Virus record (IMG/VR): IMGVR_UViG_645058793_000001
Location: 1 to 64,000 of that record
Length of the DNA stretch: 64,000 nt
Strand: one strand, 5' to 3'
Origin: a virus
In this document: positions 3,084 through 63,158 of the stretch, in pieces
Layout: each line of letters starts with the position of its first letter
Position numbering within the stretch: the stretch's first letter is position 1
The notes under the pieces: model-generated
What the model was told of the DNA's origin: nothing
What the model saw: the letters and a program-made list of their open reading frames with translations, nothing else
Databases searched by the model: none
Translations under genes and position numbers: made by a program

Positions 3084-3421
3084 TAACTCATACTCCTAAT
3101 AATTGAATATATTGGATTTAATGCGTCCATAATATTGAATGATGATATAATTATTGTCACAACTGCTACTAGCAGTAACCCCATTGCCACCACATAATGT
3201 GCCTCACCATCGGCATAACTTTCATCACTATCTATTGCCACGCCTCTTTTATATAATGTGTGAGCTACTGAAATTAAGATAACAGTAATTACAGCATAGA
3301 TAATTGCTCCAACATAATGTGCAACTACGTATTGATGCACCATTGTATCAACCATACTTGGCATGTTTTGTGCGCCGCTGTTTATGGTGTCGATTAACTT
3401 AGCGATTGCTTTATCTGTCAT
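3083..3421 (-). CDS. hypothetical membrane protein (112 aa)
   Basis: Three hydrophobic helices. Confidence 0.4.
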   Translation of the reverse strand: MTDKAIAKLIDTINSGAQNMPSMVDTMVHQYVVAHYVGAIIYAVITVILISVAHTLYKRGVAIDSDESYADGEAHYVVAMGLLLVAVVTIIISSFNIMDALNPIYSIIRSMS

Positions 3422-4358
3422 TGATCACACCTCTAATCACTGTGGAAATCTGCTTGTTTAATTCCTTGTTTACTACTGGCTCAACTAATTCTTGTGATAC
3501 ACCTTCATCACGAACATATTCTTTAATAATGTCAGCCTTTACAGCTTTGCTTAATTCACCAAAGTTTTTAAAGTCCAACTCAATACCATGTGATGATACA
3601 TTCATGACACGATTATCAGTTACATAGCGCTCAACATCGATTGCCAACGCTGATAATTCATGAGGTTGACTATGTTTCTTAGGTACGTGTCGCACTTCAA
3701 GATATTTATCAGTCTTGTGTTTAACTACTCGGTAGTGTTCCAGTTCATTGCTATCGTACAGACTAGCTTTAAATGGTTTATATACTAACCCCTCGCTGAT
3801 ACCGCCGTATAATGATTTTTCGCTAGGTGTTTGTTTTAATAACTCTCCCAATGGTTGTGGTTCACTAACCGTTTCAACCATGAAATCATTAACTATTGCT
3901 TGTAAGTCATAAAGGTCAGGTTGCAAAAATTTATCTTCAACAATCAGAATCGCATCATATAACACAACTGCTTTACCTTTTACGTCATAATTTGATCGTT
4001 GAATTTTATCTCCGTATAACTCCCCATAGATATGTGCTTCAACAATCTTACTATCATAGATAAAATCAATTGCTTCACGCATGGTATCAACATCTTCATG
4101 ACTGATTAAATCAGGTAACACATTGAAAGGTTTTTCGTCTGGATCTTTAATAAATCCTGACCGCTTACCAAACTTATACTCACCAGTTGCCATATCGATT
4201 GTGATAGAAACGTTTGATCCGTCTACTTTTTCAGTAGCATACATCAGTTCATTCAATTCAAAATTACGTTCGTCAACTTTATAGTGATTAGTTAATGATG
4301 GATATTTTAGAAATTTCATTACGATTCCTTTCGCCATACGCTGTGACCAGTGAACCAT
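3411..4358 (-). CDS. ATP-dependent RNA/DNA ligase-like nucleotidyltransferase
   Basis: Motif I KVDGSN (KxDG); motif IV-like EGLVYK; motif V-like KHKTDK; 315 aa is in the range of Rnl2-type RNA ligases. Confidence 0.5.
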   Translation of the reverse strand: MVHWSQRMAKGIVMKFLKYPSLTNHYKVDERNFELNELMYATEKVDGSNVSITIDMATGEYKFGKRSGFIKDPDEKPFNVLPDLISHEDVDTMREAIDFIYDSKIVEAHIYGELYGDKIQRSNYDVKGKAVVLYDAILIVEDKFLQPDLYDLQAIVNDFMVETVSEPQPLGELLKQTPSEKSLYGGISEGLVYKPFKASLYDSNELEHYRVVKHKTDKYLEVRHVPKKHSQPHELSALAIDVERYVTDNRVMNVSSHGIELDFKNFGELSKAVKADIIKEYVRDEGVSQELVEPVVNKELNKQISTVIRGVINDR

Positions 4359-4816
4359 ACATCACCAACGCTTGCAGCATCTGGTTCGCAGTTATCGTAT
4401 GAATTGATAGCATGTCCCACTGGAATATCCTTGTTATTTAATTGATTAATAACTGATTGTGGATCTTTCATCGTGTCCCATTCCAAGCGAACGCCATAAC
4501 TGAAATTGCTATCCACATTAGCCATTAACGAAATGTATTTACCTTCAACAACTGTGCAAGACGTTACGCCTTCATACGTGCGTCCACCTGGAAAACCAGT
4601 TTCTGCTACGTAGATGTCATTAGATTTAATAAGTTTTAGTTGGTTCAAAACATCTTGTGGATCAGCCATACGAGACCATGGAATTATTGCGTTATACTCA
4701 TGACCGTTATTGTATTTGCCATAAACATGAATATGAATACTTGGAGTAACTGTGTAATCACAAACTCCTGACCACACATCTACGCCTGATGACTTACATT
4801 TAACTTTTAATTCCAT
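4319..4816 (-). CDS. hypothetical protein (165 aa)
   Basis: ORF. Confidence 0.4.
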   Translation of the reverse strand: MELKVKCKSSGVDVWSGVCDYTVTPSIHIHVYGKYNNGHEYNAIIPWSRMADPQDVLNQLKLIKSNDIYVAETGFPGGRTYEGVTSCTVVEGKYISLMANVDSNFSYGVRLEWDTMKDPQSVINQLNNKDIPVGHAINSYDNCEPDAASVGDVWFTGHSVWRKES

Positions 4817-5034: not shown

Positions 5035-5285
5035 TAATTGTTCTCCTCATCTAATTCTTGTGCGACATTTAAAAACTTGCGAAATTTATTACCGACTTCT
5101 AACACTTTATCTTCATCAGTGAATTCCTCCATAGCCATGTGGAAACGCTCGACAATAACGTCTTTATCTAAGTCTGCAACTTCCAATGCCCATGCAGTTT
5201 GGTAATACAAAAGGTCTTTATAGGTTAGTTTCATAATAATGTCTCCTACATACTGGTACGTAATCGTCGTCACCGCCAATAACAA
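5034..5285 (-). CDS. hypothetical protein (83 aa)
   Basis: ORF. Confidence 0.35.
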   Translation of the reverse strand: MLLAVTTITYQYVGDIIMKLTYKDLLYYQTAWALEVADLDKDVIVERFHMAMEEFTDEDKVLEVGNKFRKFLNVAQELDEENN

Positions 5286-5763
5286 TCTGTTCTGTACTAT
5301 CTGACAATCGCTTATTCATAGTTGCCTTGTGTCCACAATAGTTACAAATTGTTTTCATCTCTGAAATCTTATCGGCAAATACTAGCAACGCTTCCGAACC
5401 TTCGAACAAACAATTATCGAAATCATTCTTTAACCCGAAACACATCACTGGTATATCATTTGTATCCACAATTTTTGCCAGTGCAACCACCTGCTTACGT
5501 GTCAAAAATTGTGCCTCATCAATTAAGATTGCTGCATAGCCGTCAGTATTTAGCTGGGATAAATCTTCGTCCATGCCAATTGCATAAGCATCGCTTTCCA
5601 TACCGATACGTGACGTGATTTTCCCTATTCCATAACGTGTATCAACGCTACTGGTTGCTAGTAGCACACGTCGATTTTGTTGCTGGTAATTATGTGCAAC
5701 CTTTAATATCTCAATGCTTTTACCGCTCGCCATTGTGCCGTATTTATAAAATAACTGAGCCAT
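5218..5763 (-). CDS. tdk: thymidine kinase
   Basis: P-loop YGTMASGKS and a C-terminal zinc ribbon CNYCG...PVCRRH typical of type II thymidine kinases. Confidence 0.85.
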   Translation of the reverse strand: MAQLFYKYGTMASGKSIEILKVAHNYQQQNRRVLLATSSVDTRYGIGKITSRIGMESDAYAIGMDEDLSQLNTDGYAAILIDEAQFLTRKQVVALAKIVDTNDIPVMCFGLKNDFDNCLFEGSEALLVFADKISEMKTICNYCGHKATMNKRLSDSTEQIVIGGDDDYVPVCRRHYYETNL

Positions 5764-10784: not shown

Positions 10785-10990
10785 TTTTTTATTTTCCTTC
10801 TATATAAGAACGCTCTGGCTGCCCAGAAAATTGATAGGACAATACTAATGAGTGAAAGGATAATGACGAATACGTTTCCTGTAAACAGTAATACTAGGTT
10901 GATAATCGACAAAACCAGTACATGAACTGAAAGCATATTGCTTAGATAGTTCATGTGATTATTTATTTTTAATCTATCCATGTGCTTCAC
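10769..10990 (-). CDS. small membrane protein (73 aa)
   Basis: Two TM helices. Confidence 0.35.
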   Translation of the reverse strand: MKHMDRLKINNHMNYLSNMLSVHVLVLSIINLVLLFTGNVFVIILSLISIVLSIFWAARAFLYRRKIKKWFNY

Positions 10991-11975
10991 CAGTTAGTTG
11001 TTCGATCGAAACGTCTAGGGCATCTGATAGTTTGAAAATAGTTTCTAATCTAGGAGTTGTACGTCCGTTTTCGTAATTAAAAATATTATTTACATACAGC
11101 CCTGAACGTCTTGCTAATTCATTCATTGAATACCCACGTTCTAAACGATATTTATTAACATTATTTCCAATCGCAACTGCTGGACTAACATATTCAGATT
11201 TCAATTTCTTGGCAAAGTAATTATGACCTTTAGGAGTAATCATAGTTGTACGGCTTACCTTGTTATTGCTAACTATTTGGTAAGTATAAAGTGTCTCTTT
11301 AACTTCCATATATCCAAAATCAAGTGATTTAGATGTAGGTAAGTTATAATTATCACCACGTTTTGTTGTGCATACCCAACCGTTATCACGGAACCATTGG
11401 TATAACTTTTTCTCACCAATCTTAATTCCGTATTCCTTATTCAACACTTTCGCAAATGCTGACACGCCCATGCTTTCCTTGCTGCCTTCCATGATTAAGG
11501 CAACCTTTGCGTCTTCCTGTAACTTCGCAGTCAATGCACGTTCGTTCTTTAAGTCGGTTGCCACACGAATTAATGTTTCAGGACTTAGCAACACTTCCTC
11601 AGTCATGTAAGCACCATGCTTACGAATGTCGGGTAAGACTTCGGTCGTTAGCCAGCGCTTAAATTTCTTGGCTTGCTCTTTCATTTGTGGGTTACGTGAT
11701 TGCTTTGATGCGTCCCAAATCATTGAGTAGATACCTGACTCGTTGATGAAGATTGGATATTGCTCACGGCCAAGGCTGTCTGTTATCGATGGGGCTCCAA
11801 CTTGGGGTCCCATCTTTCTATCTTCATTATCAACATGCTTTACAACAGCATCTTTTGCTTTCGCATATCCCAATACCTCAGCCACATCTTTACCAACGAA
11901 CCATGGTTCATCATCAATCATTACCTGGCGGACGTCTTTACCTTCAAAACCTAGAACTTGTAACTCATTGTTCAT
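10974..11975 (-). CDS. Bro-N family antirepressor-like protein with C-terminal XRE HTH
   Basis: N-terminal Bro-N-like segment (QVLGFEG...DEPWFVGKDVAEVLGY); C-terminal HTH (YSMNELARRSGLYVNNIFNYENG). Confidence 0.6.
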   Translation of the reverse strand: MNNELQVLGFEGKDVRQVMIDDEPWFVGKDVAEVLGYAKAKDAVVKHVDNEDRKMGPQVGAPSITDSLGREQYPIFINESGIYSMIWDASKQSRNPQMKEQAKKFKRWLTTEVLPDIRKHGAYMTEEVLLSPETLIRVATDLKNERALTAKLQEDAKVALIMEGSKESMGVSAFAKVLNKEYGIKIGEKKLYQWFRDNGWVCTTKRGDNYNLPTSKSLDFGYMEVKETLYTYQIVSNNKVSRTTMITPKGHNYFAKKLKSEYVSPAVAIGNNVNKYRLERGYSMNELARRSGLYVNNIFNYENGRTTPRLETIFKLSDALDVSIEQLTGEAHG

Positions 11976-12404: not shown

Positions 12405-12734
12405 ATGTCTTTATACGAACGTGTAGTTGATTTATCTAATAAAAGAAATTTTAAAAGTGTGCGTGATTTATCTATCGCTGCTGGCATGTCTCAGAATGCT
12501 TTATATAGTTGGAAAACGCAGAGTCCTTCTGCCGACAATCTGAATGCTGTGGCAAAAATACTTGGTGTGTCAGCAGATTATCTATTAGGCAATACAGATG
12601 ATATGTATTCAAATCAAAACGATAATCAATTGGACATTAAGAACGCCCCTATACTTGCATACGACGGCAAACCAGTATCAGATGAAACTCGCGACATATT
12701 AGAAAGAATTTTAGAGATGGAAACACATAAATGA
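12405..12734 (+). CDS. XRE-family transcriptional repressor (ImmR/CI-like, no peptidase domain)
   Basis: HTH_XRE signature (SVRDLSIAAGMSQNALYSWKTQ); first gene of the rightward operon at the switch. Confidence 0.7.
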   Translation: MSLYERVVDLSNKRNFKSVRDLSIAAGMSQNALYSWKTQSPSADNLNAVAKILGVSADYLLGNTDDMYSNQNDNQLDIKNAPILAYDGKPVSDETRDILERILEMETHK

Positions 12735-13138
12735 AAAATGTAATGACCTACTTACAATATCTAGCTGACGTGAACGGTATCACTATTATTGTTACTGACC
12801 AGCTAGACGAATATGAAAGCGACAAATGTATTCCAGCAATTAATACAATTATTATTAACGAGAATTATGCTACAAAAGTTGATGTGGCTTTTAGACTTGC
12901 GCATGAGTTATCTCATTTAATATTTGGATCACGTTTTTCAGATGCAATCTATTCATTTTCAATTGGAAGCAATCGTGACGCAGAACGTGAAGCCAATATC
13001 AATGCATTAAAGATGTTGTGCAAGTATCTATACACTGATACACCTTTAGAATATCGTAACTACATTAATTTTATGAATGAATTCGGTTTACCAGCTAGTA
13101 TGGAAAACATGGTGAAGGACGCTATATTAGCTGTTTAA
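12731..13138 (+). CDS. ImmA/IrrE-family zinc metallopeptidase (anti-repressor protease)
   Basis: HEXXH motif (AHELSHLIFG); translationally coupled to the XRE repressor, a classic ImmR/ImmA pair. Confidence 0.7.
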   Translation: MKNVMTYLQYLADVNGITIIVTDQLDEYESDKCIPAINTIIINENYATKVDVAFRLAHELSHLIFGSRFSDAIYSFSIGSNRDAEREANINALKMLCKYLYTDTPLEYRNYINFMNEFGLPASMENMVKDAILAV

Positions 13139-13190
13139 AATACATACGTGCAATAATTGATCCACGATAAAAGCTAAGGAGTAATGGGCA

Positions 13191-13763
13191 ATGAAACACA
13201 AAAAGGTAATCATTTCTAGTATCATCGGGCTAATCGTTATAGTAGCGATCGTATTCACATCAATGTGGGCAGTGAATAACAACCAAACAAAGAAATTTGC
13301 GACGGTAAATGGGCACGATTTGTATAAGGTTAAAATAACTAAAGATGTACCAGCTGCTAATCCGCCCGCATTAAAAGGTGGCTATGCTAAAGGAGTTCGT
13401 GATATTGAAGGGAAAACTAAAGCTCCTGACGGGTCGCTAGTTGTTATTAAACAAGATGTTTCGTCTGGTTATTTTAAAGGAATTGGAATGGGCGCTACAT
13501 ATTCACACAAAGCAGACGGATTAACTTCTCAACAAATGATAAACAAAGTAGACGTAAATCAAAACGCTTTTGCAACTACTGTACATGATGGTAAATTCAA
13601 GACTATGTTTGTCCCAGACATGGACGATAAAAATGGAAAGTATATGATATTTGCTGGGACGGAATTTTTATCAGAGCCCACATCTAAAAAAGTAATTAAA
13701 ACATACAAAGCCAACATGGGTTACTACACCGTCACAAACTCAGGTAAACTAATCGAACCATAA
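13191..13763 (+). CDS. membrane-anchored protein (190 aa), possible prophage-expressed surface protein
   Basis: N-terminal signal-anchor (KKVIISSIIGLIVIVAIVF); GGAG RBS upstream. Confidence 0.5.
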   Translation: MKHKKVIISSIIGLIVIVAIVFTSMWAVNNNQTKKFATVNGHDLYKVKITKDVPAANPPALKGGYAKGVRDIEGKTKAPDGSLVVIKQDVSSGYFKGIGMGATYSHKADGLTSQQMINKVDVNQNAFATTVHDGKFKTMFVPDMDDKNGKYMIFAGTEFLSEPTSKKVIKTYKANMGYYTVTNSGKLIEP

Positions 13764-14311: not shown

Positions 14312-15016
14312 TTATTTTGCATTTTTTCGTGACCAGATAGAGTAAAACTTTCCATACAATGCAGTCACTAAGTAGAATAACATCGTTAGTAACATAGGCA
14401 AGCTAGATGCTGAGTAACCGATAAACAATGCTGATACCCACAGAGCAATATTAACAAAGTCAGACATTAACCACAATGAGTAGCTGTCACCATAACCCTT
14501 GAACACGTACCATGAAGCCATTGCTCCAATAATCAATACGATTGAATCCCATAGTGGGTTTGTATCACCTAACGCTGTGTACGCCATCAGTACTGGGTAC
14601 CATAGTGCTAGAATTAATACGATAGTAAAAATCCAGCCTTTAATAGATAGGAATTTTACACCGTCTTTTACACGGTTGCCCCACTTTTTCCATGTGATGA
14701 TTAATGGCACATCAATCAAGGCAACGAATACCAGTTGATCTAATACACTAGCGAAATGTCCAGCAGACCAGTTAATGTAAATATACCCTAACGCACTGAT
14801 TAATCCAAGCAGCCCATTAATAGGTTTACCAATCATCATGTACACGGTACATGCCGAACCAATAATTGTTGCGAATAATGTAATTGTGGATAGCACTGTA
14901 ATCGGCGCTGTTAGATAAAACGCTAACTGTACCCCCACAATAAACGCTAGCATAATTGCGCCAGCTGCATTCAGAGATTTAATCTCATCTAGTAACCATT
15001 TCCCATAACCTGTCAT
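14312..15016 (-). CDS. pnuC: nicotinamide riboside/NMN transporter PnuC-like
   Basis: 234 aa, about 7 TM helices, W-rich helices typical of the PnuC family. Confidence 0.6.
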   Translation of the reverse strand: MTGYGKWLLDEIKSLNAAGAIMLAFIVGVQLAFYLTAPITVLSTITLFATIIGSACTVYMMIGKPINGLLGLISALGYIYINWSAGHFASVLDQLVFVALIDVPLIITWKKWGNRVKDGVKFLSIKGWIFTIVLILALWYPVLMAYTALGDTNPLWDSIVLIIGAMASWYVFKGYGDSYSLWLMSDFVNIALWVSALFIGYSASSLPMLLTMLFYLVTALYGKFYSIWSRKNAK

Positions 15017-16272: not shown

Positions 16273-16654
16273 ACACCTTTTCTCTTTCTAAATTAGAATC
16301 TAATACACGCTGGTAAATATCTACTCGTTTAAATCGTTTCAATAAACGGTCTAGGTTGTTCAATCCAAACTCATAAGCACTGCGTTTTGATTCTGATAAC
16401 CATAACGAATAGGTGTCATCACCAATCACTTCCCACACGCTGATAGGATTAGGATCTTGTTCAACTGAGATACTACCTGCGGAAAATAAATCTAATCGGC
16501 TTAACGTTTCAGCTAACTCATCAGCCTTCGTTCGACTAAATAATTTAGCTCCATCAGCCGAATATACCCACTCTAAATTCACTGGGTTCTCACTAGCAAA
16601 ATATGCTTTCATACCAGCTAGTTCGTACACCACAACGTATTTATACATTGGCAA
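16259..16654 (-). CDS. hypothetical protein (131 aa)
   Basis: ORF. Confidence 0.35.
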   Translation of the reverse strand: MPMYKYVVVYELAGMKAYFASENPVNLEWVYSADGAKLFSRTKADELAETLSRLDLFSAGSISVEQDPNPISVWEVIGDDTYSLWLSESKRSAYEFGLNNLDRLLKRFKRVDIYQRVLDSNLEREKVYEFI

Positions 16655-17270
16655 TTTTCCTATCGATAATATCCAATACTCTCAGTGCATCTTCTGGATT
16701 AGATAAATCATTGTGCTCCAAATCAATTCGAATCTTTGGAGATATATCATAATCATCAAACCACTCACGATAACGATTCCACATACGATGATAATATTCT
16801 TCAAGGCTTGGGTCATTTTCAATTTGTTCATAATCACGACCACGTTTCTTAATACGATTTAGAATGGTATCAAAATCTGCATCGATAAATACCAGTAAAT
16901 CTGGACGTTCCTTAGCCGTCGCATTAATTTCGCCCATCATATTATCAAGTAGGTCTAAGTAGATGTTATATTCAACATCGGTGATATTACCTGATTTATG
17001 ATTTTCTGCGGTGAACAAAGCGTCCTCATAAATCGAACGGTCTAAGATATTGTTATCGTCTGCTAGCGCTTGCTTAATCATCGCGAACCGCTTGTTTAAA
17101 AAGTAAATCTGCAACGAGAATGCAAACCGTTCCGGATTCTTATAATAATCAGGTAGCACGGGGTTACCTTCAACTGGTTCGTAGAATGGTCGTGTACCTA
17201 AATGTTCTGCTAATAGTGTGGTCAGTGTTGTTTTCCCTACACCAATCATGCCTGCTGTAATAATCACCAT
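16641..17270 (-). CDS. deoxynucleoside kinase (dAK/dCK/dGK family)
   Basis: P-loop GMIGVGKTT; DRS motif (LDRSIYED); arginine-rich lid (KKRGRDYE). Confidence 0.8.
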   Translation of the reverse strand: MVIITAGMIGVGKTTLTTLLAEHLGTRPFYEPVEGNPVLPDYYKNPERFAFSLQIYFLNKRFAMIKQALADDNNILDRSIYEDALFTAENHKSGNITDVEYNIYLDLLDNMMGEINATAKERPDLLVFIDADFDTILNRIKKRGRDYEQIENDPSLEEYYHRMWNRYREWFDDYDISPKIRIDLEHNDLSNPEDALRVLDIIDRKIANV

Positions 17271-17374: not shown

Positions 17375-18223
17375 TTACTTGTTATCGACAATCGTTCCGT
17401 TAGAACCTTGAACGGTAACCCAACCATGTTGCTTACGAGCCTCTGCTTCCATGTATTGGATAGTCTTGTCATTTACAGAATCATTAATTTTCTTATTGGC
17501 TTCTGCTTGTGCGTTAGCCTTTTCAATGGTTGCGTCAGCTTCACCCTTCGCCTTAGTCTTTGCAGCCTTGGCATCAGCTTCTGCCTGCGTGTTCTTTGTT
17601 TCAGCTTCTAATTGGGCTTTCTTATTGTCTTGGCCAGCTTTGATAATATCGTCAATTGACTTTTGTGTTTGTGGATCCAATGTTGGTGTTCCAAATGATA
17701 AATCTTCAATGATAAATCCTTGCTTATCGGCGCGTTCACGGAACATATCCAATAGCTTTGCTTGAACCTTAGTTGAATCAGAACCAACAACATCTAACAA
17801 CGTGTATTGAGATAATACGGTACGTCCAGATGCAGTTAACTGTTGGTTTAACCAACCCTTTTCAATTGTTTCAATATCAACGTTTCCAAATTTCTTATAA
17901 ACAGAAGTTGCCTTTGACGGATCCACATGATACGTAAATGTGATTGCTGTATCTGTTTTCTTACCGTCAGATGTTGCTAACGAAACTGTTTGCTTAACTG
18001 TTTGTGACTTAATTGGATATTGTGTAACCTTATCTAGCCCAACCCAGTGAACACCTTGTGTCAGTGCTTGATTGCGTACACCACCACTCATTGAATACTC
18101 GATACCAACGTTTCCATTGTCAACTTTCTCAAACGTCTTAAAACCTCCAATTGTAACTACTACACCAGCAATAGCGACAATCGCGCCTCCCTTAACCATC
18201 TTCACAAATGTACTCTCTTGCAT
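17375..18223 (-). CDS. SPFH/band-7 (prohibitin/stomatin-like) membrane protein with Ala/Lys-rich coiled-coil tail
   Basis: N-terminal TM anchor, SPFH-like core (VGIEYSMSGGV ... FIIEDLSFGTP), C-terminal AEADAKAAKTKAKGEADA low-complexity coil. Confidence 0.55.
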   Translation of the reverse strand: MQESTFVKMVKGGAIVAIAGVVVTIGGFKTFEKVDNGNVGIEYSMSGGVRNQALTQGVHWVGLDKVTQYPIKSQTVKQTVSLATSDGKKTDTAITFTYHVDPSKATSVYKKFGNVDIETIEKGWLNQQLTASGRTVLSQYTLLDVVGSDSTKVQAKLLDMFRERADKQGFIIEDLSFGTPTLDPQTQKSIDDIIKAGQDNKKAQLEAETKNTQAEADAKAAKTKAKGEADATIEKANAQAEANKKINDSVNDKTIQYMEAEARKQHGWVTVQGSNGTIVDNK

Positions 18224-18972: not shown

Positions 18973-19000
18973 TTTACGTTAACGTTAACGTATACGTTAA
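18973..19000. repeat. ACGTWW hexamer array, copy B (TTTACGTTAACGTTAACGTATACGTTAA); extra partial unit 19015-19028 inside the primase 3' end
   Basis: Seen directly. Confidence 0.6.
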
Positions 19001-21387
19001 TGTTCTGGTATCTTAAACGTATACGATACACCCTCCTTCAACATAATTCCTTTGTATCCACGGCCTCTAGCTGTGCGTTTTGTTTTAAAGCGTTTAGCTA
19101 ACTCACTACCTAACATCTTACGAGTTGGATAATCATCAGGTTCCTCACCAACAAATTGACCCCAAGCATTTGTAACGTCTGGACCTTCTACAAAACCAGC
19201 TTCATTTTCAATGAATGTTTCTTTGATAAATTCGCCAATCGGATCACTGCTTGAATGATATTTTTCGTTTGCTTGTTTCACTGCATAAGGAACGGGACCT
19301 AGTCCTTCGTTACGCCACTTAGTAGCAGCTTTAATAAGGTACCATAGAATTGCACCAGCTTCCGTTTCTAACTTATGACCAAGGTTAACGTCAACGTCTT
19401 CCTCTTTGATTGTTAAATTGAATGGTATGACGTTCGTACGACGCCAGATACCTTCGGACGTATCGTTAATTTGTGGTAAGTAGTTTGTATCAAAGAACGG
19501 TACACCAGCTGATTGGAACTCGTATGGACGATTGTATTTTTCATTGGCAACGAACGTGCCACCACCAGTAAGTTTCTTAATGATTGCTGCGTCTAACTTT
19601 TTATTCTGTGCAATCTCAGATACCGATACCAAACGTGCGCCACGCAAACGCGCTAACTCATCGTTATTGCTGGTACTTTTCTTGCCGTCGTCCATGAATG
19701 TATCTGGGTTAACAGCTGTTACGTAATCTCCTAAGGCGTTTTTAATTGCACTCATCAAAACACCTTTACCATTACGACCGTTACCGTATAGCAAGACGTA
19801 TTCTTGTTCCTCACCATTACCGAACATTGAATATCCAACGAATTTCATCAGATAGTCAACCATGTCAGCGTCACCCAACATAACCTGATTTAGAAAAGTT
19901 TTGAATTCCTTAGGTTCAAGGTTTTTATCAGGCGCAATCAGCGTGCTCTTAGTGAAATATCGCTTAGGGTCATTGTCACTACGCTCACCAGTTGCTAAAT
20001 CATAGACACCATCTGGTGTGTTAATAACACCAACTTCCTTATCGAATATATTGATGTCCACATTAACCATCGAGGCTAGTAACTTCTTAGCACTATTCAA
20101 CCCTTTATCAGTACGTACCGACTTGGCAAATTTATGGAACGCATTAATTGCCGATTTTTTATCTTTTGAATAATTCTTCTCAGCAAGTTCTAAATCCTTT
20201 TGGTCTGGATAATTCTCGACGGTTGGTTCTGGTGGCATGATAGGTTCCTCAGTCTCAAGGATAATATCGCTGAGCTTAATAAACAATTTGTGTACCACAC
20301 GCTCAACGTCACGTTTCCATACCGTTCCGTCGAATACCATAAACGTTGTCTCAGACTTTTCCGAATCAACATGTAACACCTTGTCGCCCCAACGTTCATA
20401 GAAACGTTCTGCCATTCCTTGATCAGTGTAATCATGGTGTGGATAAACCTTTTCTTCGTCACCGTTTCCAATCACAACTGAGAAAGCTTCTGTCTTAGGA
20501 CGATACGTTTCAGTCACGTCAGTAATTGCACGATTAATCGTACCTTCACCATACGTTGACTTACCATGTTTCTCGTCCCATTTATCACGCATCAAACCAG
20601 AGTCTCGGAATATTTCGTCCATGAGATAACGGTCACGACCAGTCCAGAATGCTAATAGATTAACGAACGCTAGGTCAGCCTCCGATGCTGAACCATATTC
20701 GTCTTGCCAGTTACCGTCATAAAGCTTTTTAAAATTAGCACCACCATTAGATGCCAAAGCTTTTTCGATAACTTCTTCTTTAGTTAAATCGTTATGTTCA
20801 ATCACAACATCTTCTAATCTAGGGCGTTCCTCTGGACGAATAAGCGTGTTATATACGTGGTCAATCATTTCTTGTCCGGGAGCATTAATAGTATCTTTGT
20901 GACCCATGATGCTCATACCAGTTAAAGCAAAGAAACGACCTGTGCTGTACATCTCAACAACTTTGTCACCGTCTTGGTTTTGACGCGACTTATCACCGGG
21001 CAAGGTACCTTTAGCAATGATATGAATGCCTTCGTGAGATTGTGACAATTCGGTATATGATCCCATTGCTTCAATTGCCATACCAAGTTGCGTAGTATTA
21101 TAACCTTGTTCATACAAGTCAATCTCATCTTGGTAATGATCCATATCAATACCGAAAAACGGTGGCTTCAAAAAGAAAGCCAAACCGTCTGCATCAAAGA
21201 TTTCCATGTTTGCTAAAGCTTCATCAAAAGTTGTCCATGTACGTTCATCAGTAGAACTAGCGTGTCGGCCAGTCATTGCACTGACAGGAATTTTCGTATA
21301 ACGACTGCTCGTATCGTTCCATTCTTTACGATACAAGCCCCATTGATTAACTGACTTTAATTCTTCTGGTAAGTCTTGATAGCTCAT
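18997..21387 (-). CDS. DNA primase / P4-type (D5-like) primase-helicase
   Basis: 796 aa; C-terminal Walker A NGRNGKGVLMSAI; N-terminal primase-like region; position in the replication module. Confidence 0.75.
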   Translation of the reverse strand: MSYQDLPEELKSVNQWGLYRKEWNDTSSRYTKIPVSAMTGRHASSTDERTWTTFDEALANMEIFDADGLAFFLKPPFFGIDMDHYQDEIDLYEQGYNTTQLGMAIEAMGSYTELSQSHEGIHIIAKGTLPGDKSRQNQDGDKVVEMYSTGRFFALTGMSIMGHKDTINAPGQEMIDHVYNTLIRPEERPRLEDVVIEHNDLTKEEVIEKALASNGGANFKKLYDGNWQDEYGSASEADLAFVNLLAFWTGRDRYLMDEIFRDSGLMRDKWDEKHGKSTYGEGTINRAITDVTETYRPKTEAFSVVIGNGDEEKVYPHHDYTDQGMAERFYERWGDKVLHVDSEKSETTFMVFDGTVWKRDVERVVHKLFIKLSDIILETEEPIMPPEPTVENYPDQKDLELAEKNYSKDKKSAINAFHKFAKSVRTDKGLNSAKKLLASMVNVDINIFDKEVGVINTPDGVYDLATGERSDNDPKRYFTKSTLIAPDKNLEPKEFKTFLNQVMLGDADMVDYLMKFVGYSMFGNGEEQEYVLLYGNGRNGKGVLMSAIKNALGDYVTAVNPDTFMDDGKKSTSNNDELARLRGARLVSVSEIAQNKKLDAAIIKKLTGGGTFVANEKYNRPYEFQSAGVPFFDTNYLPQINDTSEGIWRRTNVIPFNLTIKEEDVDVNLGHKLETEAGAILWYLIKAATKWRNEGLGPVPYAVKQANEKYHSSSDPIGEFIKETFIENEAGFVEGPDVTNAWGQFVGEEPDDYPTRKMLGSELAKRFKTKRTARGRGYKGIMLKEGVSYTFKIPEH

Positions 21388-25172: not shown

Positions 25173-25517
25173 ATGAACTCGGTAAAAGACTTCGACTTAA
25201 AAGAACGAATAAAAATTTTAGCTGAGCAGCAAGGAAAATCATTAGCGGACATCACAAAAGAATCTGGATATACGTCTGGACGTATTGGTAATTGGTCACA
25301 ATTTTTTCCTGGCATGGCTCAGGTTGAACACATCGCAAGTTTGCTGGACGTATCGATATTAGATTTGTTGCCATACACGGCAGAAGATTTAGGAATTGAT
25401 ACAATACCAGAAACAACACCAAAAGGCGTGTTAATGACGACAGTAAACAAATCAAACTTAACGGACAGCCAGTACATCATATTAGTCGATTTAATTAAAT
25501 CAATGGAGGAAGGTTAA
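25173..25517 (+). CDS. XRE-family HTH regulator (114 aa)
   Basis: HTH (SLADITKESGYTSGRIGNWSQ); first gene of the par operon. Confidence 0.55.
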   Translation: MNSVKDFDLKERIKILAEQQGKSLADITKESGYTSGRIGNWSQFFPGMAQVEHIASLLDVSILDLLPYTAEDLGIDTIPETTPKGVLMTTVNKSNLTDSQYIILVDLIKSMEEG

Positions 25518-26272
25518 TGTCAGCAACCATAACAGCGTTTTATAACAACAAGGGTGGGGTAGCTAAGACGACATCAACAATTAATATTGCTGGGGAATTG
25601 TCTAAGCAACAAAAAAAGACCCTGATAATCGACGCGGATCCACAGGGGCATTCAACATTAAGTTTTGGATATGATGCAGACTCAATTGATGTTGAACTAG
25701 GTACAATGTTGTACAACAAGTTAGAAGGTTCACAAGCAAAAGAATACTTTATTCACATAAACGACTATCTCGATGTTGTACCAGCAAATCAAACGTTAGC
25801 CGATTTCATCGCCTCAAACCCAGAAGGGAACAATTACCTTAATGACTTCCTAAAAGGGCTGAGAGACGAATATGATTACATATTTATCGATATGGCACCG
25901 GCAGTCGACGTTATCCTAGCCAATGTGTTGAATGTAGTTGACGACTTAGTGGTATTATCTAGTCCACAACCATACGCAGTTCGTAATACCGAACGTACTT
26001 TAAACACAACTGACAGCTACAATGTACCAATTCGACGGATAGTTGCAACCATGGTGGATAAGCGTGTCAATACAGATAAAGAATTTCTAGAGCAGTTAAA
26101 GGAAATTGCAACAGAACATAACGTAAAGTTAGCTGATACGTATATTCCAATGCGTGCTGCATTCCGCGACAGTATGGGTAGGTATCAAATGCCGTTATCG
26201 CTAGTTGATGAACCTAGCTATAAAGAGGCACAACAGTATTATCATAAATTAACGAAAGAGTTGGGATATTAA
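25517..26272 (+). CDS. parA: ParA/Soj-family partition ATPase
   Basis: Deviant Walker A NNKGGVAKTT; ParA-like length and motifs (IIDADPQG). Confidence 0.8.
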   Translation: MSATITAFYNNKGGVAKTTSTINIAGELSKQQKKTLIIDADPQGHSTLSFGYDADSIDVELGTMLYNKLEGSQAKEYFIHINDYLDVVPANQTLADFIASNPEGNNYLNDFLKGLRDEYDYIFIDMAPAVDVILANVLNVVDDLVVLSSPQPYAVRNTERTLNTTDSYNVPIRRIVATMVDKRVNTDKEFLEQLKEIATEHNVKLADTYIPMRAAFRDSMGRYQMPLSLVDEPSYKEAQQYYHKLTKELGY

Positions 26273-26273
26273 T

Positions 26274-26522
26274 ATGGCTAAACCACAATTTCTAAGGAGA
26301 CCAACAAACGTATTAAAGCAGGATCCACAACCTGAAAAAGAAGTGGATCTAAGAACTAAAAGCAGTGAGGAAACAGCAACCGAATTATTAGCTGTTAGAG
26401 CAACACCAACAGTTAAGAAATTATTAGATGATTTAGGTAGTGAACTTGGTGTTAGGCAGGGTGGTAGAAGAAAAATTATCGAAGACGCCTTGTTTGATTA
26501 CTATGAAAAACAAAAAGATTAA
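26274..26522 (+). CDS. ParG/ParB-like small centromere-binding protein (putative RHH fold)
   Basis: 82 aa, basic N-terminal tail, C-terminal RHH-like (RRKIIEDALFDYYE); translationally coupled to parA. Confidence 0.45.
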   Translation: MAKPQFLRRPTNVLKQDPQPEKEVDLRTKSSEETATELLAVRATPTVKKLLDDLGSELGVRQGGRRKIIEDALFDYYEKQKD

Positions 26523-54212: not shown

Positions 54213-54695
54213 TTACCCCACTTTCAATTGCTCGTTTGCTAAGACACTTGCTGCTGCGGCAATGATTGCACCTGCTAAATCATCAGCAAATGTGTTGATG
54301 TGTTCCTTATCTTGGTCTAATTCACCGATAATGCCACGCTTCATACGGTCTTCATATCCATAATTTGTTGTGGCAATCGTTCCATACAGACTAGCGATGC
54401 CGAATGCAAGGTGTTCGTCTACCCCAAACATTGGATCATCATTTGCAATCTTGCTGGCTAGTGACTGGTACTTGCTATCCACATGATTATTTTCGACTAG
54501 CTCATCAAGTAGCAACATTGTAAAAATGTAATCTTGGACGATTGGGTTGGCCATGACTTCGCCCACTGCCATGTACGCATCAGTTTGTACTAGCTCTGGA
54601 TTATGCGTGATTTGATTCTCATATACGATGTTAGCCAGACTTTCTGACGTGATTCCACGACTTTCCAACATCTTTTCTACCTTATATAACTCCAT
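54213..54695 (-). CDS. hypothetical protein (160 aa), first gene of the packaging operon
   Basis: ORF. Confidence 0.4.
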   Translation of the reverse strand: MELYKVEKMLESRGITSESLANIVYENQITHNPELVQTDAYMAVGEVMANPIVQDYIFTMLLLDELVENNHVDSKYQSLASKIANDDPMFGVDEHLAFGIASLYGTIATTNYGYEDRMKRGIIGELDQDKEHINTFADDLAGAIIAAAASVLANEQLKVG

Positions 54696-56594: not shown

Positions 56595-57227
56595 GTGATT
56601 AAACCGGTAGAAAGAAAGGTATTTATTATGCACAAAACAGTAGAAACAATTGCAAAAAGCAAGACAACTAACGGACAACCAAGTTTACATAGTGTTCACA
56701 TTTCGTCTGAACAATTGGTAACAACGGACAGGCACGTACTAATTCGTGAACAATTCAAAACACCGATTGATAATCTAAATGGGGAACTGACGATTGATCC
56801 AAACGGTGTACCACTGAATGTGAACTATCCCGACACGGATAGATTGATACCAACGGACGATAACATTCGATACCACTTGAATATTGAAGCAGGCAAATGG
56901 GTAGATATTATTCAGGTGTATAAGAAAAACATGTATGCAGCAATCAATATCACGGACGGAATTGTGACGATTGCATTTGGCGAATCGTCTGACGATTTGA
57001 GTGGTGAATTTGAAATTGGTAAATCGGATAATGAAGATTTGACAATCTACTTTCAACCCAAGTTTTTGAAAATGATCGGAGACTACGGCAAGGAAGTAAT
57101 CGGGCGCAACTTTAAAGATTCGTATTTTGAATTGGAAGTTGTAAGTCGGTACGAACCAGCAAAAGTAATTTTTGAGAATGACGATATTACAGGAACATTT
57201 TTGGTAACACCATTGCACGTTAATTAA
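56595..57227 (+). CDS. hypothetical protein (210 aa; start may be the Met at 56628)
   Basis: ORF. Confidence 0.4.
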   Translation: MIKPVERKVFIMHKTVETIAKSKTTNGQPSLHSVHISSEQLVTTDRHVLIREQFKTPIDNLNGELTIDPNGVPLNVNYPDTDRLIPTDDNIRYHLNIEAGKWVDIIQVYKKNMYAAINITDGIVTIAFGESSDDLSGEFEIGKSDNEDLTIYFQPKFLKMIGDYGKEVIGRNFKDSYFELEVVSRYEPAKVIFENDDITGTFLVTPLHVN

Positions 57228-59502: not shown

Positions 59503-59537
59503 AGACGCCCACCGATAATTCAGTGAGCGTTTTGTTA
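59503..59537 (+). terminator. probable rho-independent terminator of the rightward cluster
   Basis: ACGCCCAC ... GTGAGCGT imperfect hairpin followed by TTTGTT. Confidence 0.35.
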
Positions 59538-59939: not shown

Positions 59940-60470
59940 TTATACAATCTTCCCCTTGTAATCACGAGTTTCAATGCTGCGGAAATCAAATGTTTGTAAT
60001 TCGTCCAGCGAATTGACATAACTATCTGGTCCAATAGCCGTCATTAAGTTGATTGGATTAGCATTCCAGTCACCAACATAGTACGTTACCGTAGGTTTAC
60101 CAGTAGCTTTTGCATATCCTAATTCGTATGCAGTTCCGCTATCCTCATTGCCTGCTTCGAGTACACCTAGTGTGAAGTCTGAGTTTCGGATAGCGGTTTC
60201 GTCTGCGTTATACGTATTCACACCCCACTTGAAGTCAGGGTTGAAGTCGCCGTTCTCATCGTACACATTACCTTCCGACTGATTCAAAAGTGGCAAATGT
60301 ACGTATGCAACTGTTGGATTATTTAATAATGCTCGATACCCAGTGACTAACGTTTTAATCTGCACATCTGAAAACCAACCGGCCCCAAAATATCCGGTCT
60401 TTGCACCCGGTAACTTGTCATTTGGTGCTTGCGATTGAATCTCTAGTAATTGTTTAATTAGTTCGTCCAT
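59940..60470 (-). CDS. nucleoside 2-deoxyribosyltransferase (NDT family)
   Basis: YFGAGWFSD and SGTAYELGYA motifs characteristic of Lactobacillus NDT. Confidence 0.75.
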   Translation of the reverse strand: MDELIKQLLEIQSQAPNDKLPGAKTGYFGAGWFSDVQIKTLVTGYRALLNNPTVAYVHLPLLNQSEGNVYDENGDFNPDFKWGVNTYNADETAIRNSDFTLGVLEAGNEDSGTAYELGYAKATGKPTVTYYVGDWNANPINLMTAIGPDSYVNSLDELQTFDFRSIETRDYKGKIV

Positions 60471-61938: not shown

Positions 61939-62785
61939 TCCTCCTACTAAAAAGGAACGCCTTTAAACGTTCCCTAATTATATGTATTGCACGACTACTA
62001 GCTAGTACCGCTGTTCCTCACCGTATCTTCGTGGCGAAACAACGCTAGTCGTACAAGTACACTGCAACTTTATCTAGAATGGGTGTTGCGAACCCACAGT
62101 TCATCTGTTCATCGTGTCTATTGTAAAGACGTAAGTAACTCAACCCTTCCGACCAGTTACCATTGGTTTTGTGCGTGTCACACAGGATATTATATGTATG
62201 CCGGCTTGAGAATATAGCCACAGCTCGAACGCCTTTAATTGCATTATGATTTCGCAACGTTTCCACGCTATCCCTAACGTATCGTTCATGTTCATATTAT
62301 TACTTCATAAGTATCTCGGCACGTTTCACTTAGGTAAGATGCAGCTAACATCTAACTTGCGCTACTAGTTACTGAACCGTTTCGTCTTGCGAACAGCCAC
62401 GGCACTCACTTCGTTATTGTAACGGTGAGTATTAGAACACATCACTCATGAAGGCAAAGCACTTTTGCTTGTAAGTATAATGTTTAATAGATTGTATTAT
62501 TTACCGGTCAATTCAACGATGTGGCCTTGCAGGAGTTCCGTTACCTTTTGAGTAACAGAATGCTCCACACCGCCTATTGTGTTTTGTTTGTAGGACGCAA
62601 CACTTGAAGTAGTGATCACTGGTTGTCAGTCAGCAATATAATTCATTCGTATCGCATGCGATTTACGGTCGCATACTGTTTAGTAGTCCTTTGGAATGAC
62701 CGTTGACATGGTGTCTCATCATTTGACATCAACCAAGCGTTCCTTAGGACTACATTACGTGCATAGATTGACCATTACTGGCACG

Positions 62786-62964: not shown

Positions 62965-63013
62965 ACCACATTTAAATAGAAATATCAGAATAGCCACAAG
63001 AAAATGTAGCTAA

Positions 63014-63086
63014 CGAGAACTACTGGATTCGAACCAGTGACATCATGATTAACGATCATACGCTCTACCAACTGAGCTAAGTTCCC
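63014..63086 (-). tRNA. tRNA, Asn-like (anticodon GTT)
   Basis: Hand-folded canonical cloverleaf: acceptor GGGAACT/AGTTCTC, D-stem GCTC/GAGC, anticodon stem TATGA/TCATG with loop TCGTTAA, variable loop ATGTC, T-arm ACTGG-TTCGAAT-CCAGT; position 33 is C rather than U. Confidence 0.65.
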
Positions 63087-63158
63087 ATAAATGGTAGCAA
63101 GCCGGGAAACTATGCTACCTATAAGGATAATGTTTTGCTAATCCAAAGGATAAGCAAT

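Follow-up and report, generated by a model that had tools for sequence, protein, structure and literature searches.

A phage-borne set of deoxynucleoside salvage genes with a Pnu-family transporter that most likely belongs to a deoxynucleotide-linked clade

A stretch of viral DNA of 64,000 nucleotides (IMG/VR record IMGVR_UViG_645058793_000001, positions 1 to 64,000; here called the window) encodes a nucleoside 2-deoxyribosyltransferase (NDT), a deoxynucleoside kinase (dNK), a thymidine kinase (TK) and a Pnu-family transporter, and the question raised by this locus is what the combination does for a phage. The first-pass annotation described an unusually complete salvage set, proposed that an unusual base might be channelled into the phage DNA, and took the transporter, under the name PnuC, to point to NAD+ replenishment. 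The four open reading frames (ORFs) are present at exactly the positions first given for them, all on the minus strand and all above the Pfam gathering scores by which their families were called (Table 1). PHROGs and NCBIfam were used as well: the PHROGs assignments of all four are consistent with Pfam, and in NCBIfam TK falls within NF003300 (210.3 bits, cutoff 195) and the transporter within TIGR01528 (154.8 bits, cutoff 42.45). The genes are new members of known families in a new phage, and the view that this phage carries a coherent deoxynucleoside salvage set, with an NDT that looks catalytically competent, is borne out as far as sequence can tell.

Table 1. Features of the window, in order of position
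Feature	Position	Strand	Length	Remarks
Transposase-like PHROG match	1079-1729	minus		
T4 Rnl2-type RNA ligase	3411-4358	minus		overlaps the next ORF
Unannotated ORF	4319-4816	minus	165 aa	
TK	5218-5763	minus	181 aa	PF00265, 167 bits (gathering score 20.6)
Bro-N/KilAC antirepressor with C-terminal HTH	10974-11975	minus		
M78 (ImmA-like) peptidase	12731-13763	plus		
Pnu transporter	14312-15016	minus	234 aa	PF04973, 93.7 bits (gathering score 27.3)
dNK	16641-17270	minus	209 aa	PF01712, 145.3 bits (gathering score 27)
SPFH/Band 7 membrane protein	17375-18223	minus		PF01145, 70.5 bits; directly upstream of dNK
NrS-1-type primase-polymerase fused to D5 helicase	18997-21387	minus		
ParA-type ATPase and small flanking ORFs	25173-26522	plus		
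PgpA-like phosphatidylglycerophosphatase	54213-54695	minus		phrog_12432, 126 bits
Polymerase-like protein	56595-57227	plus	210 aa	matches PHROG labelled 'DNA polymerase' or processivity factor
Terminator-like hairpin	59505-59530	minus		11-pair stem, 6 G-C pairs, T-rich tail
NDT	59940-60470	minus	176 aa	PF05014, 55.9 bits (gathering score 28.8)
GOLLD RNA	62203-62575, 63013-63087	minus		RF02032, 173 bits, full model

The window has a GC content of 38.9%, is densely coded and carries one tRNA-Asn. Its replication module is of siphovirus type (Gp157, AAA_24, SF2 helicase, DUF669, primase-polymerase, VRR-NUC), and it also encodes an amidase endolysin, giant tail proteins, ParA, an antirepressor and an M78 peptidase. 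The fused primase-polymerase and the 210-aa protein are its only polymerase-like gene products. The scanned window proteins include no ribonucleotide reductase (RNR), thymidylate synthase, dUTPase or classical DNA polymerase, and the phage seems to rely on the replicative polymerases of its host. A megablast comparison of the NDT region with 50,697 annotated phage records returned no near-identical relative, and in terms of DNA the phage is therefore new; a phage 98-99% identical to it is present in metagenomes. A 13.3 kb contig of a close relative joins window positions 1 and 64000 through about 993 bp (L055, 3904-4896), which encode only a 172-aa HTH_3 (Cro/CI-type) protein on the opposite strand. 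This gives a genome of about 65 kb, circular or circularly permuted, of which the window represents about 98%. All four salvage genes lie in one leftward block, which runs from 25013 to 1, across the junction, and on from 64000 to about 59505. The terminator-like hairpin would end the leftward transcription unit that holds NDT; it is a match to a consensus, and the number of such sites lies within the range of shuffled sequences.

The closest homologues of the transporter and of a DUF3310 protein (71-80% identity) are found in Weissella prophages, which suggests Weissella or a related host. No integrase was detected in the window, and the presence of ParA, the antirepressor and the M78 peptidase without one suggests a temperate phage kept as a plasmid. 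A transposase-like PHROG match is also present. The GOLLD RNA lies just downstream of the tRNA-Asn; NDT is on the same strand and follows about 1.7 kb further on. Two other phage-like contigs (L053, 5276-6958; L054, 5259-6937), whose NDT homologues are 50-56% identical to that of the window, have an array of about 20 tRNAs, GOLLD and ROOL directly upstream of NDT, so that the order of tRNA and GOLLD (with or without ROOL) followed by NDT recurs. The RNA ligase and the 165-aa ORF that it overlaps belong to the leftward block that also holds the tRNA and GOLLD, and may represent RNA-repair equipment. An unusual lipid-metabolism gene, encoding a PgpA-like protein, is found beside the terminase region; its product is 36% identical to a gene product of Leuconostoc phage phiLM33_01.

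Salvage by means of NDT and dNK is established biochemistry in deoxynucleoside-dependent lactobacilli. In its enzymatic logic and its NDT catalytic residues, the window set agrees with Lactobacillus salvage, represented by the NDTs of L. leichmannii and L. helveticus and by dNKs of the L. acidophilus type; unlike that pathway, it is virus-borne and paired with a dedicated Pnu-family transporter. The window NDT matches phrog_7995 at 1e-32. Its best solved relative is the type II NDT of L. leichmannii (LlNDT, 1F8X; E 4e-22, 81.9 bits), and the match to the purine-only type I enzyme PTD (1S2D; E 5e-8, 36 bits) is far weaker; in sequence the protein is nearer to type II NDT than to type I PTD. Residues Y27, Q64, D90, D110, E116 and N141 correspond to LlNDT Tyr7, Gln46, Asp72, Asp92, Glu98 and Asn123, with E116 as the counterpart of the nucleophile Glu98, and all six catalytic positions are invariant in a 12-sequence alignment. 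The C terminus, the carboxylate of which would have to reach the neighbouring active site, aligns exactly with that of LlNDT in 12 of 12 sequences, the last residue being Val and not Tyr, and there is an N-terminal extension of 22 residues relative to the Lactobacillus enzyme. With its catalytic residues in place, the protein looks like a competent base-exchanging enzyme for both purines and pyrimidines. Homologues 46-99% identical to it occur in phage-like metagenomic contigs. The possibility that this NDT lineage is confined to phages was rejected, as a 66%-identical homologue is found in a bacterial chromosomal context.

Base exchange of this kind is what had suggested that NDT and the kinases channel a non-canonical base into the phage DNA. 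NDTs do tolerate many base analogues, as is known from biocatalysis (for example PMC9628941), and the kinases could phosphorylate the unusual-base product. However, the scanned window proteins include no enzyme for the synthesis of an unusual base or for DNA modification, and NDT has the active site of a canonical type II enzyme. There is also no replicative DNA polymerase of the phage's own beyond the primase-polymerase, so that host enzymes would need to accept the analogue, and Lactobacillales phages widely carry NDT in ordinary settings of nucleotide metabolism. The proposal is exceedingly improbable on this evidence, and that part of the first-pass annotation is not sustained.

The dNK is, from its motifs and relatives, a deoxynucleoside kinase of the non-TK1 dAK/dGK/dCK family. 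Its translation shows a P-loop (GMIGVGKTT), a DRS motif (LDRS) and an Arg-rich lid (RIKKRGRDYE); its nearest solved structures are the deoxynucleoside/deoxyguanosine kinases 8PUU and 2JAQ (E about 1e-27), and it is 63.5% identical to the dNK of phiLM33_01. The TK is assigned to the TK1 type of thymidine kinase. The SPFH/Band 7 protein is a neighbour of dNK, and its position does not imply membership of the salvage set. In phiLM33_01 a prohibitin-family gene (L001, 35061-35705) adjoins the dNK-linked Pnu gene of that phage, and no similarity was detectable between its product and the window SPFH protein.

Transporters of the Pnu family are facilitators whose function relies on a co-localised kinase for metabolic trapping (PMC5749112). 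The window protein aligns with the nicotinamide riboside (NR) transporter PnuC 4QTN at E 1.3e-10 over residues 20-228. A subgroup named PnuN has been predicted to carry deoxynucleosides on the basis of its regulation by NrdR (Rodionov and Gelfand 2005, as cited in PMC7749635), and NrdR boxes were accordingly sought in 379 kb of sequence, with the six conserved positions and the allowed spacers taken from the literature. Box pairs matching six of six positions occur only directly upstream of relatives of the window Pnu, in Lacticaseibacillus (L037, 5829-5886; L039, 5824-5880) and in Secundilactobacillus folii (L042, 5777-5853). The S. folii locus is a three-box array (spacers, 15 and 14 bp), and the Lacticaseibacillus boxes are separated by long spacers of 25-26 bp, a spacing that has recently been described for streptococci. 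Pairs with one mismatch are scattered; there are 16 of them, where shuffled sequences gave 5.9 on average and at most 10, and they were excluded from the evidence. No box pair is found in the window, even with one mismatch allowed. This is expected for a gene in a phage operon, yet it means that the regulatory hallmark of PnuN is absent here.

Sequence comparisons nevertheless place the window Pnu with the NrdR-boxed genes. Its identity is 47-52% to the bacterial Pnu genes that carry tandem NrdR boxes, and 23-25% to Pnu proteins that are NR-validated or linked to NadR. In a small bootstrapped neighbour-joining distance tree, one clade (98% support) comprises E. coli PnuC, N. mucosa 4QTN and the NadR-linked proteins, and another (99% support) comprises the window Pnu, the NrdR-boxed genes and all of the dNK-adjacent phage genes; within the latter, the window protein groups with the NrdR-boxed genes at 97%. 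Against an HMM built from five NrdR-boxed genes it scores 272.7 bits, compared with 73.8 bits against an NR-type HMM. The ligand motif in TM6 of NR-type transporters is WxxW(x)3D/N (PMC5749112). The corresponding segment of the window protein reads YSLWLMSD and departs from it, the first Trp being replaced by Tyr throughout the dNK/NrdR-linked clade, and the clade's derived motifs YxxW, INGLLG and LDxP are all present. The D/N position of the TM6 motif was rejected as a discriminator, since a NadR-adjacent paralogue also has D there.

The two types of Pnu can be seen side by side in phiLM33_01, which has one dNK-linked and one NadR-linked paralogue. The window Pnu matches the one beside dNK, NrdH and prohibitin (38.5%, E 3e-43), not the NadR-adjacent one. 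In L. allomyrinae, an NR-type Pnu gene is located 19 bp downstream of a NadR gene whose product is 52% identical to phage NadR, and both paralogue types coexist in the genome of Leuconostocaceae ESL0958. By these comparisons the NadR-linked Pnu is a paralogue separate from the window type, and the window 'PnuC' most likely belongs to a deoxynucleotide-linked Pnu clade. The same clade holds PnuN, annotated as an 'NrdR-regulated deoxyribonucleotide transporter, PnuC-like' and with a predicted substrate, and that name is already attached to some phage homologues in GenBank; unlike the NrdR-boxed PnuN genes, the window gene lacks the boxes.

A different model would follow from taking the PnuC label at face value. 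The transporter would import NR, NadR of the host would convert it to NAD+ and refill pools drained by NADase defences, and the deoxynucleoside genes would form an independent module. There is an experimentally established precedent in the phage NAD+ reconstitution pathway NARP3, in which a PnuC-like importer acts with a NadR-like kinase/adenylyltransferase (PMC13464706), and which demonstrates that phage PnuC-like proteins can serve NAD+ rescue. NadR is present in Lactococcus, public annotations of the homologues read NR/NMN transporter, and the TIGR01528 model that the window protein matches is designated a 'PnuC equivalog'. That model, however, passes all subtypes, the NrdR-boxed and dNK-adjacent proteins as readily as the others, and its score was rejected as evidence of NR specificity. 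NARP3 itself requires both the transporter and the NadR-like enzyme, with E. coli NadR alone being insufficient (PMC13464706), and no NadR was detected in the window by tblastn with a phage NadR. The roughly 1 kb absent from the window encodes only the HTH protein, and so leaves no room for one. Nudix, NrdH, guanylate kinase and RNR genes are also lacking in the window. No NAD+-II, TPP or FMN riboswitch was found at gathering thresholds upstream of the Pnu orthologues checked, and the absence of the NAD+ riboswitch, like the low identity to NR types and the separation from them in the tree, weighs against the model. What the window shares with NARP3 is a phage Pnu-family facilitator coupled to a trapping kinase; it differs in having no NadR-like partner, in the Pnu clade concerned and in the likely substrate. 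With no NadR partner and a transporter that falls in the NrdR-, dNK- and RNR-linked clade, the link to NAD+ replenishment made in the first-pass annotation is largely unsupported. The window Pnu is probably not an NAD device, and the model as a whole is considered unlikely.

The neighbourhoods of Pnu genes in phages offer a further line of evidence. In the window, the start of Pnu overlaps the stop of the upstream ORF, and dNK lies 1.6 kb away in the same direction of transcription, with four small ORFs between; NDT is about 21 kb from the Pnu-dNK region around the circle. In nattely, NDT, dNK and Pnu are consecutive. The order is dNK-NDT-endoDNase-Pnu in Lb338-1, class III RNR-dNK-Pnu in Schiekvirus TJE1 and dNK-NrdH-Pnu in phiLM33_01. 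Among the matches listed, 12 phages have both genes, and in 7 of these no more than 1.5 kb separates Pnu from dNK. The salvage genes are dispersed in the L. brevis phages and LP65.

Bacterial loci are less helpful. NrdR boxes are missing from the closest Pnu orthologues (68-80% identity), which come from Weissella, Lactococcus and Fructobacillus, and none of 35 loci of close bacterial orthologues has dNK, NadR, NDT or TK within 6 kb. With no kinase nearby, these neighbourhoods are uninformative on the substrate. A 16-bp palindrome, GATACAAAATTGTATC, upstream of the Lactococcus orthologue was rejected as an NrdR box because of its wrong C-to-G spacing. Several genomes hold more than one copy of the window-type Pnu: W. 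thailandensis has three, while W. paramesenteroides and Fructobacillus species have two each. In the Weissella, Fructobacillus and Lactococcus genomes examined (L010-L035), many copies are prophage genes with DUF3310 on one side and the terminase on the other, in a moron-like arrangement.

It may be that Pnu is lysogenic-conversion cargo that aids nutrient uptake by the host, and that its co-occurrence with dNK, TK and NDT is incidental. In Weissella and Fructobacillus prophages, close homologues are isolated genes flanked by DUF3310 and terminase genes. Their position, the presence of up to three copies per genome and the temperate or plasmid-like features of the window phage (ParA, antirepressor, M78 peptidase) would be compatible with a cargo role. 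The window gene, however, is inside the replication/early block and translationally coupled to the upstream ORF, and tight linkage of Pnu to dNK, NDT or RNR recurs in at least five phage lineages, including the strictly lytic Herelleviridae. Such a role is highly improbable for the window gene.

The combination is not rare. By tblastn, NDT is found in 44 phage records (42 with Lactobacillales hosts, one Aerococcus and one Listeria), window-type Pnu in 108, dNK in 134 and TK in 1703. NDT, dNK and Pnu occur together in at least eight distinct phages among the matches listed, namely phiLM33_01, Lb338-1, ENFP1, SAC12B, 521B, ATCCB, vB_EfaS_140 and nattely. Kyrkou et al. described dNK and NDT in L. 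plantarum myophages as 'nucleotide recycling' in 2019, assigned an array of PnuC, NMNAT and ADPR-pyrophosphatase to NAD+ salvage, and noted a second putative 'NMN transporter', the function of which was not verified there (PMC6669764). The description of the window set as unusually complete does not stand, given that the same or larger sets are present in annotated phages, that phiLM33_01 has a superset and that the combination was already under discussion in 2019 (PMC6669764).

Leuconostoc phage phiLM33_01 (PV780767) has, like the window, NDT (43% identical), dNK (63.5%), TK (43%), a dNK-linked Pnu (38.5%) and genes of the prohibitin/SPFH and PgpA-like types. In other respects the two phages are unrelated: phiLM33_01 is 81.6 kb long and encodes a DNA polymerase, primase, helicase and ligase of its own. 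Further genes of phiLM33_01 have no counterpart in the window, namely those for guanylate kinase and NrdH and, together with NMNAT and Nudix genes, a second Pnu that is linked to NadR. The Enterococcus Andrewesvirinae (nattely, VPE25) and Lactobacillus phage Lb338-1 have the same three families, with Pnu proteins that belong to the same major clade and are only about 27% identical to that of the window. Their genes are contiguous and co-oriented, whereas those of the window are dispersed over the long leftward block.

Taken together, the catalytic residues of NDT, the NrdR boxes, the phage gene clusters, the placement of Pnu in the tree and by HMM, and the lack of NadR in the window favour, with moderate confidence, a reading in which the four genes take up and salvage deoxynucleosides, and so provide dNTPs for a siphovirus without an RNR of its own. 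In such a pathway, Pnu would act as a PnuN-type facilitator and equilibrate external deoxynucleosides across the membrane. The dNK would phosphorylate dA, dG and dC, and TK would phosphorylate dT and dU, as expected from their families; the phosphorylated products could not exit by way of the facilitator, in keeping with the metabolic trapping known for Pnu transporters. The type II NDT, to judge from its residues, would swap deoxyribose between free purine and pyrimidine bases, such that any available deoxynucleoside could be converted into the limiting one. NMP and NDP kinases of the host would then complete the dNTPs, and both RNR and NrdR/dATP feedback would be bypassed. No connection of the set with NAD+ metabolism or with non-canonical bases in DNA could be demonstrated.

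Several observations count against the uptake-and-salvage reading. The PnuN substrate is a bioinformatic prediction from 2005. The closest orthologues have neither NrdR boxes nor a kinase within 6 kb, and many are prophage cargo. The window genes are not contiguous, a dispersal that is seen in the L. brevis phages and LP65 as well. NCBIfam and GenBank name the protein an NR transporter, although the NCBIfam model does not discriminate, and host NadR could trap imported NR.

A role in counter-defence has also to be considered. Bacterial dGTPase defences degrade dNTPs to deoxynucleosides (10.1101/2021.04.26.441389), which are substrates of dNK and NDT. The salvage set might then serve mainly to undo the action of dNTP-degrading defences (dGTPase or SAMHD1-like), with dNK and TK re-phosphorylating the deoxynucleosides that are freed and NDT rebalancing the pool. 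The logic of re-phosphorylation parallels that of the NARP pathways, but plain dNTP supply explains the set equally well, and deoxynucleoside kinases are mentioned in none of the retrieved papers that link phages and dGTPase defence. We regard a mainly defensive function as very unlikely. A broader version, in which Pnu, dNK, TK and NDT form an 'uptake-and-trap' pathway that is the dNTP counterpart of NARP, draws on deoxynucleosides from outside the cell and also re-phosphorylates those released by such defences, as counter-defence at the level of metabolites, is likewise speculative and appears quite unlikely. No literature was found on a salvage module that counters dNTP-depleting defences by re-phosphorylation. 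If this version were true, the many 'NMN transporter' genes of Lactobacillales phages would be misnamed.

The uptake-and-salvage reading has consequences for annotation. The tree, the NrdR boxes and the linkage of genes point to a tie between one large Pnu clade and deoxynucleotide supply, insofar as this can be judged from genomes, and more than 100 phage records and many prophages contain Pnu genes that are labelled as NMN or nicotinamide riboside transporters, which is likely to be a systematic misannotation. NARP3 has made phage PnuC topical, and such genes are easily taken for NAD+ counter-defence. If the tie of this clade to deoxynucleotide supply is confirmed, it would define a viral import route for DNA precursors, and would provide the first functional assignment of PnuN-type transporters.
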